From the sequence record JF770475: a stretch of DNA of 47,180 nt; one strand, given 5' to 3'. This DNA comes from Escherichia phage phiEB49. This document shows, piece after piece, positions 587 through 46,110 of this stretch (positions are counted from its first letter, which is position 1; every line of letters begins with the position of its first letter). Under the pieces are notes generated by a model. It made no database searches, was not told where the DNA came from, and saw nothing but the letters and a program-made list of their open reading frames with translations. The position numbers were made by a program, and so were the translations under genes.

Positions 587-632
587 AATAGCACTTTTTG
601 CTAATGACCGCTCAGTCCTGATTGGGTATAGT
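587..632 (+). promoter_or_regulatory. dyad-motif promoter (TAGCA-N5-TGCTA, then TATAGT)
   Basis: Dyad core 589-603, 23-nt spacer, TATAGT 627-632, leader with GAGGAG SD before ATG 661. Confidence 0.5.
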
Positions 633-660
633 CATCACATCAACAGCGAGGAGATATAAA

Positions 661-879
661 ATGAAATCGATTATTATCAACAACGAAATCAAATTTGACG
701 AAGATGCATTGAGCCTGGCTGATATGGGCTATGAGATTGGTGAAGGGGTTGAAGTTTTTGAGCTTGGTGGAGATTACTTTATTGATGCAAAGCAAAATGT
801 TGTTATTGACGGCATTGTAGCCATTTACGAAGGTGAAGAGGTTTACGTAACAAAAGAAGAAATCGAGGTATTAGCATGA
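661..879 (+). CDS. hypothetical early protein (73 aa)
   Basis: ORF track 622..879 trimmed to ATG 661 preceded by GAGGAG SD; stop overlaps next start (ATGA). Confidence 0.5.
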   Translation: MKSIIINNEIKFDEDALSLADMGYEIGEGVEVFELGGDYFIDAKQNVVIDGIVAIYEGEEVYVTKEEIEVLA

Positions 880-1115
880 AGATTCGCTGCACTAATGTTA
901 TTCAAAGCACAGACAAGAAAGTATTAACACCATTCGTAAAAGGCTCTGTATACGACGCTGAGCAGTTAATCATTAACGGTAAGGCAATCCCGAACGAGTG
1001 GTTGATTAATGGCGCTGAGCGACCGCACAAGCACGATTCTGGATGGATTGCTATCGCTGGCTGGAAGGTTGGAATGTTTATACCTGGAATCGCAACTTTT
1101 GACGAGGTGAAATGA
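876..1115 (+). CDS. hypothetical protein (79 aa)
   Basis: ORF track; start overlaps upstream stop. Confidence 0.45.
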   Translation: MKIRCTNVIQSTDKKVLTPFVKGSVYDAEQLIINGKAIPNEWLINGAERPHKHDSGWIAIAGWKVGMFIPGIATFDEVK

Positions 1116-1268
1116 ATGCTAAAGCCATCTGATTTGAATTATTACGATCTGGAAACCATAGCGAAGTACAGCGGCAAAGGCTGGCCTGTTGGTGACTACT
1201 TTAAGGAAGACCTGATAGAGAGCTTTCAGGTTGTCCAGGAAGCAATTACAAAAGCAGCAAAGAAATAG
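1116..1268 (+). CDS. small hypothetical protein (50 aa)
   Basis: ATG immediately after upstream TGA; below ORF-track cutoff; stop lies inside next dyad motif. Confidence 0.3.
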   Translation: MLKPSDLNYYDLETIAKYSGKGWPVGDYFKEDLIESFQVVQEAITKAAKK

Positions 1269-1308
1269 CACTAATTGCTAAAGCACTTACAGAAATTTGA
1301 TGTATATT
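1264..1308 (+). promoter_or_regulatory. dyad-motif promoter
   Basis: TAGCA-ctaat-TGCTA 1266-1280, 22-nt spacer, TATATT 1303-1308, leader AACGAGAGGA before ATG 1338. Confidence 0.5.
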
Positions 1309-1337
1309 TATTTCACACCAAACGAGAGGATATAAAC

Positions 1338-1727
1338 ATGGCAACTACCATTACTAAGAACTGGGTGAGCAGCGATAACAAATTATTTAAAGCTCGCGTT
1401 AAGTTTGTTGATGAATTTGTTAATGGCGTAGTCGAGAAGGTGGGATATGAACAAATAAAGCTTAATGGGAAGTGGGTACAGAAGCCAAAGGGAGGGAGAT
1501 ACATTAATACAAAGACACTGCTTTGCACCAAGGTTGACCACAGCAATCCACTCAAAAAATCATTTACTGAGGGGAAGCGTTATCAGATCGCCATGCACGC
1601 TGGATTAGGTCGTAACGCTGGCTATATCTACGACAATGAAGGTGACGGCTGGCAGCTAACTAGAGACGATGAAGTTGGCTATGATGTTGGTTTTGGCATG
1701 TATAAATTTGAAGCTCAATATAAGTAA
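1338..1727 (+). CDS. hypothetical protein (129 aa)
   Basis: ORF track 1275..1727 trimmed to ATG 1338 with SD GAGAGGA. Confidence 0.5.
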   Translation: MATTITKNWVSSDNKLFKARVKFVDEFVNGVVEKVGYEQIKLNGKWVQKPKGGRYINTKTLLCTKVDHSNPLKKSFTEGKRYQIAMHAGLGRNAGYIYDNEGDGWQLTRDDEVGYDVGFGMYKFEAQYK

Positions 1728-1772
1728 ATAGCACTTTTTGTTAATGACACTACCCGCTCCGGCGGGTATATT
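1727..1772 (+). promoter_or_regulatory. dyad-motif promoter (variant TAGCA-N5-TGTTA) with hairpin in spacer
   Basis: Core 1729-1743; spacer holds hairpin CCCGC-tcc-GCGGG; TATATT 1767-1772; leader CATCGATAACAACGAGAGAG before ATG 1805. Confidence 0.5.
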
Positions 1773-1804
1773 TATATCCATCGATAACAACGAGAGAGAA
1801 TAAG

Positions 1805-44977: not shown

Positions 44978-45077
44978 TGATACTTTTTGTTATAACTTTA
45001 ACAATCTCATATATAGCAAGTGCAAGAAAAAGCGATGCTAAAGGGTATTCCGCGATAGTTTTAATTAGCCCTGTCAT
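44973..45077 (-). CDS. small hydrophobic peptide (34 aa)
   Basis: MTGLIKTIAEYPLASLFLALAIYEIVKVITKSIK; ATGA-coupled to upstream ORF. Confidence 0.25.
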   Translation of the reverse strand: MTGLIKTIAEYPLASLFLALAIYEIVKVITKSIK

Positions 45078-45202
45078 TTCTTCTCCTCGCGCTCGCGCCA
45101 CATGTTCATCAACTCAAAGTATGCCATTGCCTCATCGCCGTCCTTTGCCTCATCCATCATCTTCTTGCACCACTCAGAAGGATTCATTTCCTTCTTCTTC
45201 AT
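45074..45202 (-). CDS. small acidic protein (42 aa)
   Basis: MKKKEMNPSEW...; below ORF-track cutoff. Confidence 0.25.
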   Translation of the reverse strand: MKKKEMNPSEWCKKMMDEAKDGDEAMAYFELMNMWREREEKK

Positions 45203-45249
45203 AATCAGGTCCATCACTACCTTTGCCTCATCTATTTTCGATAAAGTAA

Positions 45250-45293
45250 TAATATCGCATCCTTGCGATTAATGTTTAGCAATTCTTGCTATT
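45250..45293 (-). promoter_or_regulatory. dyad-motif promoter
   Basis: Core 45277-45291 (TAGCA-attct-TGCTA) overlapping upstream stop; weak -10 near 45251. Confidence 0.4.
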
Positions 45294-45540
45294 TGCTGAA
45301 ATAAACATATCCAAGCTCATCCCGCTGCTTTCGAAGCTCAACAGCCTTATTAAGCGACTCAATGGCGTCATTAAGGTCTGTTAGATAGTCCTTATGCCCT
45401 CGCAAACCAGTGCAAAGCATCTTTTTAATTGCATGCTGAATTGCTGGGTCAGTTACGCAAAATGCATCAAGAACTCGATATACATCAACTGTTACTTCAG
45501 TTCCATCGAGGCCGATAATCTCTCGGTTGTACTTACTCAT
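45289..45540 (-). CDS. hypothetical protein (83 aa)
   Basis: ORF track 45289..45588 trimmed to ATG 45540. Confidence 0.45.
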   Translation of the reverse strand: MSKYNREIIGLDGTEVTVDVYRVLDAFCVTDPAIQHAIKKMLCTGLRGHKDYLTDLNDAIESLNKAVELRKQRDELGYVYFSK

Positions 45541-45676
45541 AATCTTCACCCTCATTAACAATAATAAGACCAAGACAATCGCTATCACATGCAGTTAAAT
45601 TTCCAAACTTTTTGTGGAACTCAACGCATTCGCTGATTGTCGTAAATTCATATTGATTTTCAACTTTGTTATTCAT
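45533..45676 (-). CDS. small Cys-containing protein (47 aa)
   Basis: ATGA-coupled to downstream gene; below ORF-track cutoff. Confidence 0.25.
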   Translation of the reverse strand: MNNKVENQYEFTTISECVEFHKKFGNLTACDSDCLGLIIVNEGEDYE

Positions 45677-45794
45677 ATCTCAATCCTCGTTATCGTGCCG
45701 CCATGCGTCGCCTGCATCAACATGGCGTATCTCTCGTCTATATAATGCAGTAGCATATCCATACCCCTGCTGCTGAACTTGTGCTCGTATATGG

Positions 45795-46034
45795 TCACTT
45801 GTATTGGCTAGACAGTTGGCAACCTGATAGCGCTGTGCAAATCTGCTCGTATCGGCTCCATGCGGTATCGGTATCCCATGGCAGCTCATCTACTTCATCG
45901 AACTCTTGGTTGCGAATCTGATTTAGGGCCTCTGCGATGACGCCTGAATCCTGGAACATTCCTTTTGAGTCGAAGTACTGAAGTGCTACTTTCAGTGCAA
46001 ATGCTTGCTCTTCTGACAGGTTAATGGTAATCAT
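45795..46034 (-). CDS. hypothetical protein (79 aa)
   Basis: ORF track; preceded by dyad promoter and conserved leader. Confidence 0.45.
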   Translation of the reverse strand: MITINLSEEQAFALKVALQYFDSKGMFQDSGVIAEALNQIRNQEFDEVDELPWDTDTAWSRYEQICTALSGCQLSSQYK

Positions 46035-46065
46035 GTTAACTTCCTCTCGTTTGGTTGATAGGGTA

Positions 46066-46110
46066 ATAATAGCTGACTACCCGATTTATTGTTTAGCAAT
46101 TAGTGCTATT
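46066..46110 (-). promoter_or_regulatory. dyad-motif promoter
   Basis: Core 46094-46108; minus TATTAT 46066-46071; leader CCAAACGAGAGGAAG. Confidence 0.5.

Follow-up and report, generated by a model that had tools for sequence, protein, structure and literature searches.

Why should the short 5' leaders of so many transcription units in one phage genome resemble each other beyond the Shine-Dalgarno (SD) sequence? The question is raised by the genome of Escherichia phage phiEB49 (JF770475), which we analysed as a single stretch of 47,180 nucleotides, hereafter the window. An earlier note on this DNA had listed 13 start codons, at 661, 1338, 1805 and 19813 on the plus strand and at 5496, 6986, 8417, 17065, 18288, 26220, 40522, 44901 and 46034 on the minus strand, all following what it took to be near-identical leaders with a suggested RNA-level function. 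We find that this 'conserved leader' is very probably the downstream third of a duplicated promoter cassette, made up of the start region, the initial transcribed sequence (ITS) and a short 5' untranslated region (UTR). The best-conserved part of the unit, and its main biological interest, is an upstream 20-bp box that the note had overlooked. This box resembles the marbox, the binding site of the host regulators MarA, SoxS and Rob. We regard as reasonably probable a composite explanation in which the units are class II marbox promoter cassettes with an open leader, used by the host RNA polymerase. It draws on a repeat family of fixed geometry, the marbox match, covarying hairpin arms, an unstructured leader and the gain, loss and swapping of cassettes, all established from sequence.

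A family of probable promoter cassettes

The window is a complete Rogunavirus genome (Drexlerviridae, T1-like). Its relatives by Megablast are Shigella phage Sf12 and Escherichia phages e4/1c, AKS96, AHP42 and AHS24, with 84-89% identity, and the recorded hosts of the relatives are mainly Escherichia, Klebsiella, Citrobacter, Salmonella and Shigella. The genome is circularly permuted, as one cassette unit spans the junction between the end and the start of the window. The repeated unit was found at all 13 listed start codons, whose upstream regions align into one clear family. With a hidden Markov model (HMM) trained on these 13 units and used with nhmmer, 12 of them score E<=1.4e-13 and the one at 18288 scores 2e-7. 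The model adds two leader-type units, at 45298-45228(-) and 19374-19312(-), and five sites that have the upstream box only. With the junction unit, the window thus contains 16 units with a family-type leader (13 + 2 + 1), so that the 'more than 15' first proposed holds, and about 21 units with the box. Elsewhere, nhmmer finds 4-9 full units per 20 kb in each of the Drexlerviridae loci, T1 included, and none in 60 distant terminase loci. The cassette is about 75-85 bp long, is present in about 20 copies in phiEB49 and occurs in all Drexlerviridae examined. Each unit occupies an entire intergenic space, and cassettes precede early, middle and late-region genes alike.

From 5' to 3', the cassette consists of the stop codon of the upstream frame, the 20-bp box, a variable hairpin, the -10 element, a discriminator, the start region, an A-rich leader, the SD and the start codon. 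The box reads (A)ATAGCAC-nnn-TTGYTAAA and, counted from the predicted +1, covers about -50 to -31, with its centre at about -40. The stop codon of an upstream frame of at least 45 codons is inside the box or abuts it in 18/20 units, and is mostly the TAG of ATAGCAC. Across the family, the start of the box is 38 nt from the start of the -10 element in 148/207 units and 39 nt in 27/207. The -10 hexamers are close to consensus (TATAGT, TATATT or TATTAT) and often preceded by TGn (extended -10). They are followed by a pyrimidine-rich discriminator of 6 nt, with the consensus TACCTC, and by an A at the seventh position (1.0-1.1 bits), the predicted +1, after which comes TCGAAAC or CACAAAC. The family consensus downstream of the -10 is taCCTC-A-TCGAAAC. 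The distance from the start of the box to the start codon is 69-86 nt in the 20 units of the window, all of which are co-oriented with the downstream gene.

The description of numerous short transcription units that combine a -10 hexamer, some 25 nt of leader and an SD is therefore supported, as far as predicted units go. The SD, of the GAGAGGAG type and 6-9 nt before the start codon, had been called perfect; most units do have a strong one (GAGAGGAG, GAGGAG), but that of some is weak (GAGAGAGA, AGAGAGA, AAGGAA). As for the -35 element, the TTGCTA inside the box was considered and rejected, since at 22-23 nt from the -10 it cannot act as one. Most units have no canonical -35, and a generic sigma70 scan flags only two cassettes together with the box-less promoter at the junction. 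This explains why few promoters were found in related genomes: the annotations of AHS24 and SU57 used generic sigma70 searches and report only 5-20 promoters.

The box fits a class II marbox

Two definitions of the marbox are available, gcannwwntgnnaaa (PMC12052159) and GCAHWWWWTGYYAAA (PMC6900184). With the first, the window contains 15 perfect matches where 1.1 would be expected, and 0/100 shuffles reach 15; with the second, 17 matches are found at <=1 mismatch, the expectation being 1.7. Perfect matches occur at 3.2-3.7 per 10 kb in Drexlerviridae, compared with 0.13 in control phage loci. The family consensus of the box, AATAGCACGAATTGCTAAAaC, in which ATAGCAC is kept in at least 61/66 clusters and TAAA in 54-64/66, agrees with the E. 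coli marbox wherever the latter specifies a base.

The geometry agrees as well. In class II promoters, the marbox points forward, overlaps the -35 and is centred between -36 and -55 (PMC12052159); RamA is positioned on micF at about -41 (PMC8811837), and MarA-like regulators, RamA included, bind the marbox across Enterobacteriaceae (PMC12052159). The phage boxes are oriented toward the gene, centred at about -40 from the predicted +1 and offset by 38/39 nt from the -10, all as in class II. The micF marbox of E. coli K-12, ACAGCACTGAATGTCAAAAC, begins 38 nt before the -10 element of that promoter, TAGAAT, which is the same offset as in the phage. A weight matrix built from the phage boxes only has a single outstanding match in the micF region (score 17.5) and a single one in the marRAB region (18.5), in both cases the known marbox, with runners-up scoring about 0 and a null frequency of about 2-7e-6. 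On fumC it gives a moderate match (7.6) with a -10-like sequence near the same offset, and on the sodA and nfo promoters no convincing match; it thus recovers strong marboxes only.

The half-sites of the box are asymmetric, with G at position 4 in 63/66 units and C at the mirror position 14 in only 35/66. This is as expected for a monomeric reader that has a pair of helix-turn-helix (HTH) motifs, which is what MarA-type regulators are (PMC6900184). Searches for a phage-encoded MarA/AraC homologue that might read the box came back empty, both with MarA and Rob as phmmer queries (all E>1) and in a Pfam scan of 50 early and middle proteins, and this reader was rejected. In the literature that could be searched, we found nothing that links marboxes to T1-like phages, nor any mapping of start sites in Drexlerviridae. 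We infer from these matches that the box is a class II marbox for host MarA/SoxS/Rob, or RamA in Klebsiella, and that it replaces the missing -35. That the cassettes really depend on these regulators seems to us an even call, or slightly better.

Alternatively, the box might be read by a phage factor through the partial palindrome TAGCA-N5-TGCTA centred near -42, or serve the C-terminal domain of the alpha subunit of RNA polymerase in the manner of an UP element, its likeness to a marbox being coincidental. The candidate readers are a Cro-like HTH protein (10910-11383) and a Rha/Ant-like protein (18655-19284), acting as a middle-gene activator or as a stoperator-like repressor. The palindrome itself, the presence of these two putative regulators and the near-invariance of positions 3 and 11, which a marbox does not require, speak for this possibility, and the sole unit without a box, with its canonical -35, might serve as the immediate-early promoter from which the factor is expressed. 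A stoperator, an enhancer or an UP-like element were also the proposals of the authors who described the repeat in phage TLS (PMC11447400). However, the asymmetry of the half-sites agrees with the Y of the marbox and with a monomeric reader of the two-HTH type, which weakens the case for a palindromic operator bound by a dimer, although we retain it as a rival. The -10 offset identical to that of micF and the recovery of host marboxes by the phage-derived matrix also argue for the marbox, and the GC-rich cores of the box make an UP element unlikely. We therefore hold a phage reader to be improbable, but worth keeping in mind.

What is conserved in the leader

Counted from the predicted +1, the leader is 22-36 nt long in the window and 18-43 nt, with a median of 26, in the family. 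Its composition is A 52%, G 23%, C 15% and U 10%, and its first 8 nt are conserved as AUCGAAAC or ACACAAAC. When the units are anchored on the -10, the columns from +1 to +8 carry 0.5-1.1 bits; an alignment on the start codon leaves GAGG as the only conspicuous feature, and long leaders still have the 5' motif. As the distance to the -10 is fixed and that to the start codon varies, the conserved segment would belong to the promoter start site and ITS or, equally, to the extreme 5' end of the RNA. The 'TACCTC' previously counted as leader is partly upstream of +1, where many units have it as the 3' arm of a covarying hairpin.

The degree of conservation had been overstated. The literal consensus CGAAACNANACGAGAGGAG has no correct match in the window even at 3 mismatches, and the leaders are not near-identical: among non-redundant cassettes, the mean pairwise identity is 0.42-0.57 for +1 to +14, both within and between clades, compared with about 0.30 for the spacer and 0.75-0.84 for the box. 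By our own estimate, the A-rich composition alone would give about 0.35 for +1 to +14, and the constraint on this segment is thus real but modest. The degenerate pattern TANNNTNNNYYCAYMRAMA, which covers the -10 and the start region, has 15 matches at <=1 mismatch where 3.8 are expected, and 0/100 shuffles reach 15. Together with the 0.5-1.1 bits per column after the -10, these matches indicate that conservation is not limited to the SD; on this point the alignment bears out what had been suggested. A reason for the conservation may be found in the effect of the ITS on output, which is plausible by analogy: depending on the ITS, the output of a promoter can vary by more than 10-fold, and productive yield is correlated with the proportion of purines in this segment (PMC5961368). 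Whether the conserved segment assists promoter escape and provides an open leader is, on the available sequences, about an even question.

Cassette mobility as a possible source of leader similarity

Part of the likeness between leaders in phiEB49 is recent, to judge from the 16-mer ACACAAACGAGAGGAG, which has three exact copies in this genome and none in the relatives. Two of these copies precede the ORFans 25855-26220(-) and 40316-40522(-, 68 aa), which are paralogues (phrog_14592) with near-identical cassette leaders and terminators of their own. Both are inserted between late genes in a moron-like layout and are missing at those positions in the relatives. More generally, orthologous genes are preceded by a cassette, a plain terminator or a different cassette depending on the phage. 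In one such swap, upstream of the 46034 gene in the relative L015, the crossover is inside the leader. Homology breakpoints against ten relatives number 3.3 per cassette and 1.8 per other gene junction; 14/15 cassettes are hit by a breakpoint, compared with 32/50 other junctions (Fisher p=0.049), and the breakpoints cluster at the edge of the box and in the leader.

It might therefore be argued that the leader similarity has no function and is a by-product of the duplication, gene conversion and recombination of mobile, PeSL-like or moron-like cassettes, the shared sequence serving mainly as homology patches for modular shuffling. The ACACAAACGAGAGGAG triplet with its two inserted ORFans, the gain, loss and swapping of cassettes and the roughly two-fold enrichment of breakpoints all go in this direction, and so does the mapping of PeSL crossovers between the -10 and the SD (PMC2839356). 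Nevertheless, the ATCGAAAC-type start is common to clades whose terminases are only 58% identical, and identity within clades is no higher than between them, which points to constraint rather than to recent homogenisation. Genome-specific concerted evolution of the leaders was rejected for the same reason, with the ACACAAACGAGAGGAG triplet as sole exception. The neighbouring spacer of the same cassettes is at a random identity of about 0.30, and the breakpoint enrichment is weak. We thus find it unlikely that descent and shuffling account for the leaders by themselves.

Possible RNA-level roles of the leader

A structured RNA element, or one for processing as suggested in the earlier note, finds no support in our analyses. 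The mean minimum free energy (MFE) of the segment from +1 to 15 nt beyond the ATG is -1.3 kcal/mol, no lower than for shuffles, and the SD is mostly unpaired. An Rfam search of the window returned one match, a tRNA, and no leader family, and a structured cis-regulatory leader was rejected on these two counts. Pairing of the CCUC of the discriminator with the SD in read-through RNA was also discarded, because the accessibility of the SD drops only from 0.71 to 0.50.

A specific recognition site in the RNA is a different matter. The 5' segment (AUCGAAAC or ACACAAAC, and/or ACGAGAGGAG) might be recognised in the RNA by an RNA-binding protein, a ribonuclease or a small RNA of the phage or the host, as a 5'-terminal tag, or one across the SD, that controls the stability or translation of this set of mRNAs. 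Models for such a site are T4 RegB, which cleaves GGAG in early SDs, T4 RegA and CsrA, which binds GGA. Conservation is indeed family-wide and extends past the SD, many SDs contain GGAG or GGA, and a motif tied to the start site is just as much tied to the 5' end of the RNA, the place at which 5'-end-dependent decay is determined. On the other hand, there is neither structure nor covariation nor an Rfam family, the distance from the 5' motif to the SD and start codon varies over 18-43 nt, and identity is modest (0.42-0.57). Pfam and PHROG scans of the early proteins gave no candidate RNA-binding protein or RegB-like nuclease, and the cassettes of the HNH endonuclease genes pair the same box with unrelated leaders. 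An RNA-level site is accordingly doubtful, and we rank it behind a functionless by-product. Finally, that the DNA from +1 to +14 is an operator at which a phage repressor shuts off this promoter class later in infection is very improbable: the motif does lie at a fixed position over the start site and putative regulators are present, but it has no dyad symmetry and low information content (0.5-1.1 bits), two subclasses (ATCGAAAC and ACACAAAC) coexist, and the cassettes precede early, middle and late-region genes alike.

Variable hairpins between box and leader

The inverted repeat downstream of the box is GC-rich and variable, and it lies either within the spacer or around the -10. In many units the TACCTCA region is the 3' arm and the 5' arm is just upstream of the -10. 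The arms differ among units but match within a unit, as in T1 (GGGGTA/TACCCC, AAGGCC/GGCCTT, GGGGAA/TTCCCC) and likewise in phiEB49 (for example CGGTGAGGTA/TACCTCATCG and GATGAAGTG/CACTTCATC). In a set of 66 non-redundant units, a stability of <=-10 kcal/mol is attained by the cognate arms of 19.7% and by 1.4% of non-cognate pairs (permutation p ~1e-4). A hairpin of <=-5 kcal/mol is found between -34 and +4 in 65% of these units; 29 hairpins span the -10 and 14 are wholly in the spacer. Orthologues retain the pairing of the arms through G:T wobbles on the sense strand, which suggests that the structure forms in read-through RNA or in single-stranded DNA. The spacer hairpins, followed by a T-rich -10, look like terminators, and hairpins in these cassettes are probably terminators or attenuators that insulate the units. 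Those that embrace the -10 lack a U-tract and are thus not classical terminators.

Proposed mechanism

In the composite explanation that we favour, the host RNA polymerase would start at the predicted A of the CAT-type start. Rob, which is abundant and constitutively made, or MarA or SoxS induced by stress, would bind the box, activate transcription and substitute for the missing -35. The hairpin would insulate each unit from upstream read-through, forming only in read-through RNA or single-stranded DNA. The conserved start region would provide for efficient initiation and promoter escape, and the short, A-rich and unstructured leader with its strong SD would offer an open 5'UTR for rapid loading of ribosomes. 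The similarity of the leaders would be kept by common descent, cassette recombination and purifying selection, and not by RNA structure.

A number of points weigh against this explanation. The +1 positions and promoter activities are predictions, as is the role of the conserved segment in escape or translation. In many units the -10 element is good or extended, and an activator may be dispensable. Marbox patterns are degenerate, with 17,730 sites at <=2 mismatches in E. coli (PMC12052159), and activation of the MarA type at class II promoters is modest, at 2-4-fold (PMC8811837). We noticed the marbox match post hoc; by our rough estimate, such a coincidence has a chance of 1e-3 to 1e-2. In the absence of inducers, Rob has little activity. 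The box is more constrained than a marbox, notably at positions 3 and 11, its partial palindrome could be read by a phage dimer, and its position 19 departs from the Y of the 20-mer marbox consensus. Lastly, the leader motif is moderately conserved, with part of its identity explained by A-rich composition, the breakpoint enrichment is weak and the hairpins around the -10 have no U-tract.

Comparison with known systems

A 21-nt intergenic direct repeat, aaATAGCACnnnTTGnTAAAA, was described in phage TLS and noted also for T1, Rtp and Rogue1, its function being listed as an open question in 2024 (PMC11447400). The phiEB49 boxes are members of this repeat. They have the same sequence, the same intergenic location, orientation with transcription and position about 76 nt upstream of start codons, and the same A, T and G subclasses of the central triplet. 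The description of the T1-like repeat is confined to the 21-mer, without the link to a -10 at 38 nt, the hairpin, the start region and leader or the marbox match. The upstream repeat and PeSL-like cassettes are thus already known, whereas the start region and leader, the geometry from box to -10 and the identity with a marbox appear not to have been described.

With the class II promoters of the host, of which micF is the archetype (PMC12052159, PMC6900184, PMC8811837), the cassettes share the consensus, the forward orientation, the 38-nt offset and the lack of a canonical -35. They differ in being found in a virulent phage, at about 20 copies per 47 kb, and in having a box far better conserved than host marboxes, embedded with a stop codon, a hairpin and a conserved leader; binding and activation are here predictions.

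As for the overall layout, it recalls the PeSLs of T4-like phages, which are composite promoter/terminators that mediate modular shuffling (PMC2839356, PMC4122927). Both have, in the same order, an upstream stop codon, an upstream element, a stem-loop, an SD and a start codon, and in both the stem-loop is placed between the upstream element and the -10 or over the -10 and includes G-T pairs. Both are also tied to ORFans and mobile genes, with crossovers between the -10 and the SD, and the cassettes, given their weak enrichment of breakpoints, may like PeSLs mark the sites of indels or replacements. As in PeSLs, the phiEB49 cassettes start at the upstream stop codon (18/20) and end with the SD and start codon, which here lie within 19-36 nt of +1. 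Unlike PeSLs, however, which have consensus -35 and -10 elements and an AT-rich upstream region, they carry a marbox, mostly without a canonical -35, and there is no sequence homology between the two. Moreover, experiments on PeSLs have demonstrated promoter and terminator activity as well as minicircles, whereas the cassettes are known from sequence. The phiEB49 cassette is therefore an analogue of the PeSL and not a homologue.

The start region has a counterpart in the experimentally mapped A1 (CC-ATCGAGAGGGAC) and A3 (AC-ATGAAACGACAG) promoters of phage T7, which have a CAT-type start 7-8 nt after the -10 and a purine-rich ITS, as the cassettes do. The N25 promoter of T5 belongs with them. 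The likeness of A1 and A3 to the cassette start is in the top 0.3% of the null, which is weakly significant and suggestive, and a comparison with nhmmer found nothing. In contrast with the cassettes, T7 and T5 early promoters have a canonical -35, and in T7 a long distance separates the A promoters from the first start codon. Similarly, lambdoid morons combine a promoter of their own, a gene and a terminator between conserved genes, as do the 26220 and 40522 units, but the latter are in a virulent phage and share their promoter type with core early genes.

Implications

It is tempting to propose that T1-like phages have wired about 20 units per genome to host MarA/SoxS/Rob (and RamA where present) via class II marboxes, and that the 21-nt repeat is that marbox; we see the proposal as evenly poised. 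The units concerned would include early and recombination genes, ORFan morons and homing-endonuclease genes. If the proposal is true, phage gene expression should be raised by bile salts, by salicylate or antibiotics and by oxidative stress. As it replicates, the phage DNA would further offer hundreds to thousands of high-quality marboxes, and could titrate the regulators away from host efflux and porin genes. A large and widely used family of virulent enterobacterial phages would then depend on, or be tuned by, the regulators of intrinsic antibiotic resistance, with a bearing on combined phage and antibiotic therapy, on gut conditions, as bile activates Rob, and on the annotation of phage promoters. 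Standard TTGACA-N17-TATAAT searches miss these promoters. The cassettes might also be used in engineering as compact, portable expression modules with an activator site, an insulator hairpin, a -10, a short leader and a strong SD. By itself, the conservation of the leader is of modest interest and fairly ordinary for duplicated phage promoters. The main value of the analysis is that the question of the T1-like repeat becomes directly testable.

Coordinates and additional observations

The units are listed in Table 1. Those of the four HNH_3 homing-endonuclease genes of the late region, two of which also have AP2 domains, each have a marbox, a terminator-like hairpin and a -10, followed by unrelated leaders.

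Table 1. Cassettes and related elements in the phiEB49 window; cassettes are named after the start codon that they precede.
Feature	Position	Strand	Box	-10 element	Predicted +1	Hairpin, leader and remarks
661	588..660	+	marbox ATAGCACTTTTTGCTAATGA 588-607	TATAGT 627-632	639	leader ATCAACAGCGAGGAGATATAAA; also flagged by generic sigma70 scan
1338	1265..1337	+	perfect marbox 1265-1284	TATATT 1303-1308	1315	leader ACACCAAACGAGAGGATATAAAC
1805 (DUF3987 protein)	1728..1804	+	marbox 1728-1747	TATATT 1767-1772	1780	spacer hairpin CCCGCtccgGCGGG at 1753-1766, flagged terminator-like
5496 (GTG start)	5497..5572	-	marbox ACAGCACTAATTGCTAAAAC 5572-5553, 16/20 identical to micF marbox	TATATT 5534-5529	5522	arms GATGG/CCATC flanking -10; leader ATCGAAACAAACGAGAGGATACAAAG
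6986 (67-aa ORFan)	6987..7065	-	perfect marbox 7065-7046	TATAGT 7027-7022	7015	spacer hairpin CGCCAatgaTGGCG
8417	8418..8500	-	marbox 8500-8481	TATTAT 8462-8457	8450	9-bp arms GATGAAGTG/CACTTCATC around -10, -15 kcal/mol; leader ATCGAAACGAAACAAAC...
10816 (helicase)	10817..10896	-	marbox ATAGCATTTTTTGTTAAACA 10896-10877	TATTAT at offset 37		leader only loosely family-type
Orphan marbox	12433..12452	-	ATAGCACGATTTGCTAAAAT			no downstream gene on own strand; between gene end 12377 and tail-fibre start 12476(+)
17065 (ERF recombinase)	17066..17137	-	marbox ACAGCACGAATAGCTAAAAA 17137-17118	TATAGT 17099-17094	17087	arms CGGTGAGGTA/TACCTCATCG around -10
18288	18289..18362	-	variant box ATAGGCAAAACCAATTGGAT, not a marbox	CATAGT 18324-18319	18312	leader ACACAAACAAAGAGAGATAGAGAA
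19284 (Rha/Ant-like regulator)	19285..19370	-	marbox with 2 mismatches 19370-19351	TATAGT 19332-19327	19320	36-nt leader
19813 (phage lipoprotein)	19728..19812	+	marbox 19728-19747	extended, TTTGCTATAGT (hexamer 19767-19772)	19779	34-nt leader ATCGAAACGAAACACAC...
26220 (121-aa ORFan, phrog_14592)	26221..26294	-	marbox 26294-26275	TACAGT 26255-26250	26243	leader ACACAAACGAGAGGAGATGAAAA
27929 (HNH endonuclease, 27450-27929)	27930..28001	-	perfect marbox 28001-27982	extended, TGATACAAT		spacer hairpin AGCCAA..TTGGCT; different leader
32872 (HNH endonuclease, 32390-32872)	32873..32943	-	perfect marbox 32943-32924	TATTAT 32905-32900		terminator-like hairpin AGCCCCtcctGGGGCT + TTTTGT
35377 (HNH/AP2 endonuclease, 34853-35377)	35378..35448	-	marbox with 1 mismatch 35448-35429			terminator-like hairpin GCACCCttcgGGGTGC + T-run
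40522	40523..40595	-	marbox with 1 mismatch 40595-40576	TATATT 40557-40552	40545	spacer hairpin CGCCAaggaTGGCG; gene between terminase and portal
42642 (HNH/AP2 endonuclease, 42154-42642)	42643..42711	-	perfect marbox 42711-42692	extended, TGATATCAT
44901	44902..44976	-	marbox with 1 mismatch 44976-44957	extended, TGATATGAT (hexamer 44938-44933)	44926	arms GGGGTA/TACCCC around -10, -12 kcal/mol
45217	45218..45292	-	perfect marbox 45292-45273	TATTAT 45254-45249	45242	leader ATCGAAAATAGATGAGGCAAAGGTA; outside the earlier list
46034 (DUF7180)	46035..46109	-	perfect marbox 46109-46090	TATTAT 46071-46066	46059	arms GGGTA/TACCC
Junction unit, 3' part of leader	47164..47180	-				..CGAGAGGAGTAGTAAAA; start codon 47163 (DUF7174 protein)
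Junction unit, canonical sigma70 promoter	1..41	-	none; TTGCAA 41-36, 16-nt spacer	TGgTATGAT (hexamer 19-14)	7	leader begins ACACAAA
TTTTTTATTGGAG unit	11415-11427	+				start 11436+
TTTTTTATTGGAG unit	25802-25814	-				start 25795-
TTTTTTATTGGAG unit	27067-27079	-				start 27059-
TTTTTTATTGGAG unit	30985-30997	-				start 30979-
TTTTTTATTGGAG unit	40141-40153	-				start 40133-

The variant box, AATAGGCAAAACC(A/G)ATTGGATAA, is present in two copies, at 18340-18365(-) and about 18625-18650(-), upstream of small genes that start at 18288 and 18580. It is kept in relatives and, with 7 mismatches to the marbox, is not a marbox; it may be the site of a different factor. In the leader of the 19284 unit, a palindrome CAGCAATGGCGTTGCTA at 19300-19316(-) resembles the half-sites of the box and could be an autoregulatory site or an RNA hairpin. 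On the plus strand, a TATACT hexamer closely precedes the orphan marbox and the tail-fibre start follows 24 nt after it; the orphan could be the remnant of a cassette or a repressing site. Other matches to the marbox pattern outside cassettes are found at 38336-38350(-) and 38534-38548(-), within the gene 37802-38887 (GCAGGTATTGCCAAA, GCAGGTAATGCCAAA), and at 24443-24457(-), 22 nt upstream of the tail-fibre start 24421.

Around the box-less promoter at the junction (1-60 and 440-570) there are repeats, AATCATTGCAA at 502 and 549, AACCATTGCAA at 31 and TGCAAT, which may form an operator cluster of an early control region; their number in these intervals is not significant relative to shuffles. 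Close to the genome junction is also a non-coding (AAT)n microsatellite of about 8 units, at 262-286(+).

A second repeated intergenic unit consists of a terminator hairpin whose T-run continues as TTTTTTATTGGAG, with the start codon of a late gene 5-7 nt further on. The exact 13-mer has four occurrences, and the unit looks like a terminator fused to a ribosome-binding site. Finally, the tRNA gene found by Rfam (RF00005, 57.8 bits) is at 43911-43983(-), and relatives have a tRNA-Arg at the equivalent place.

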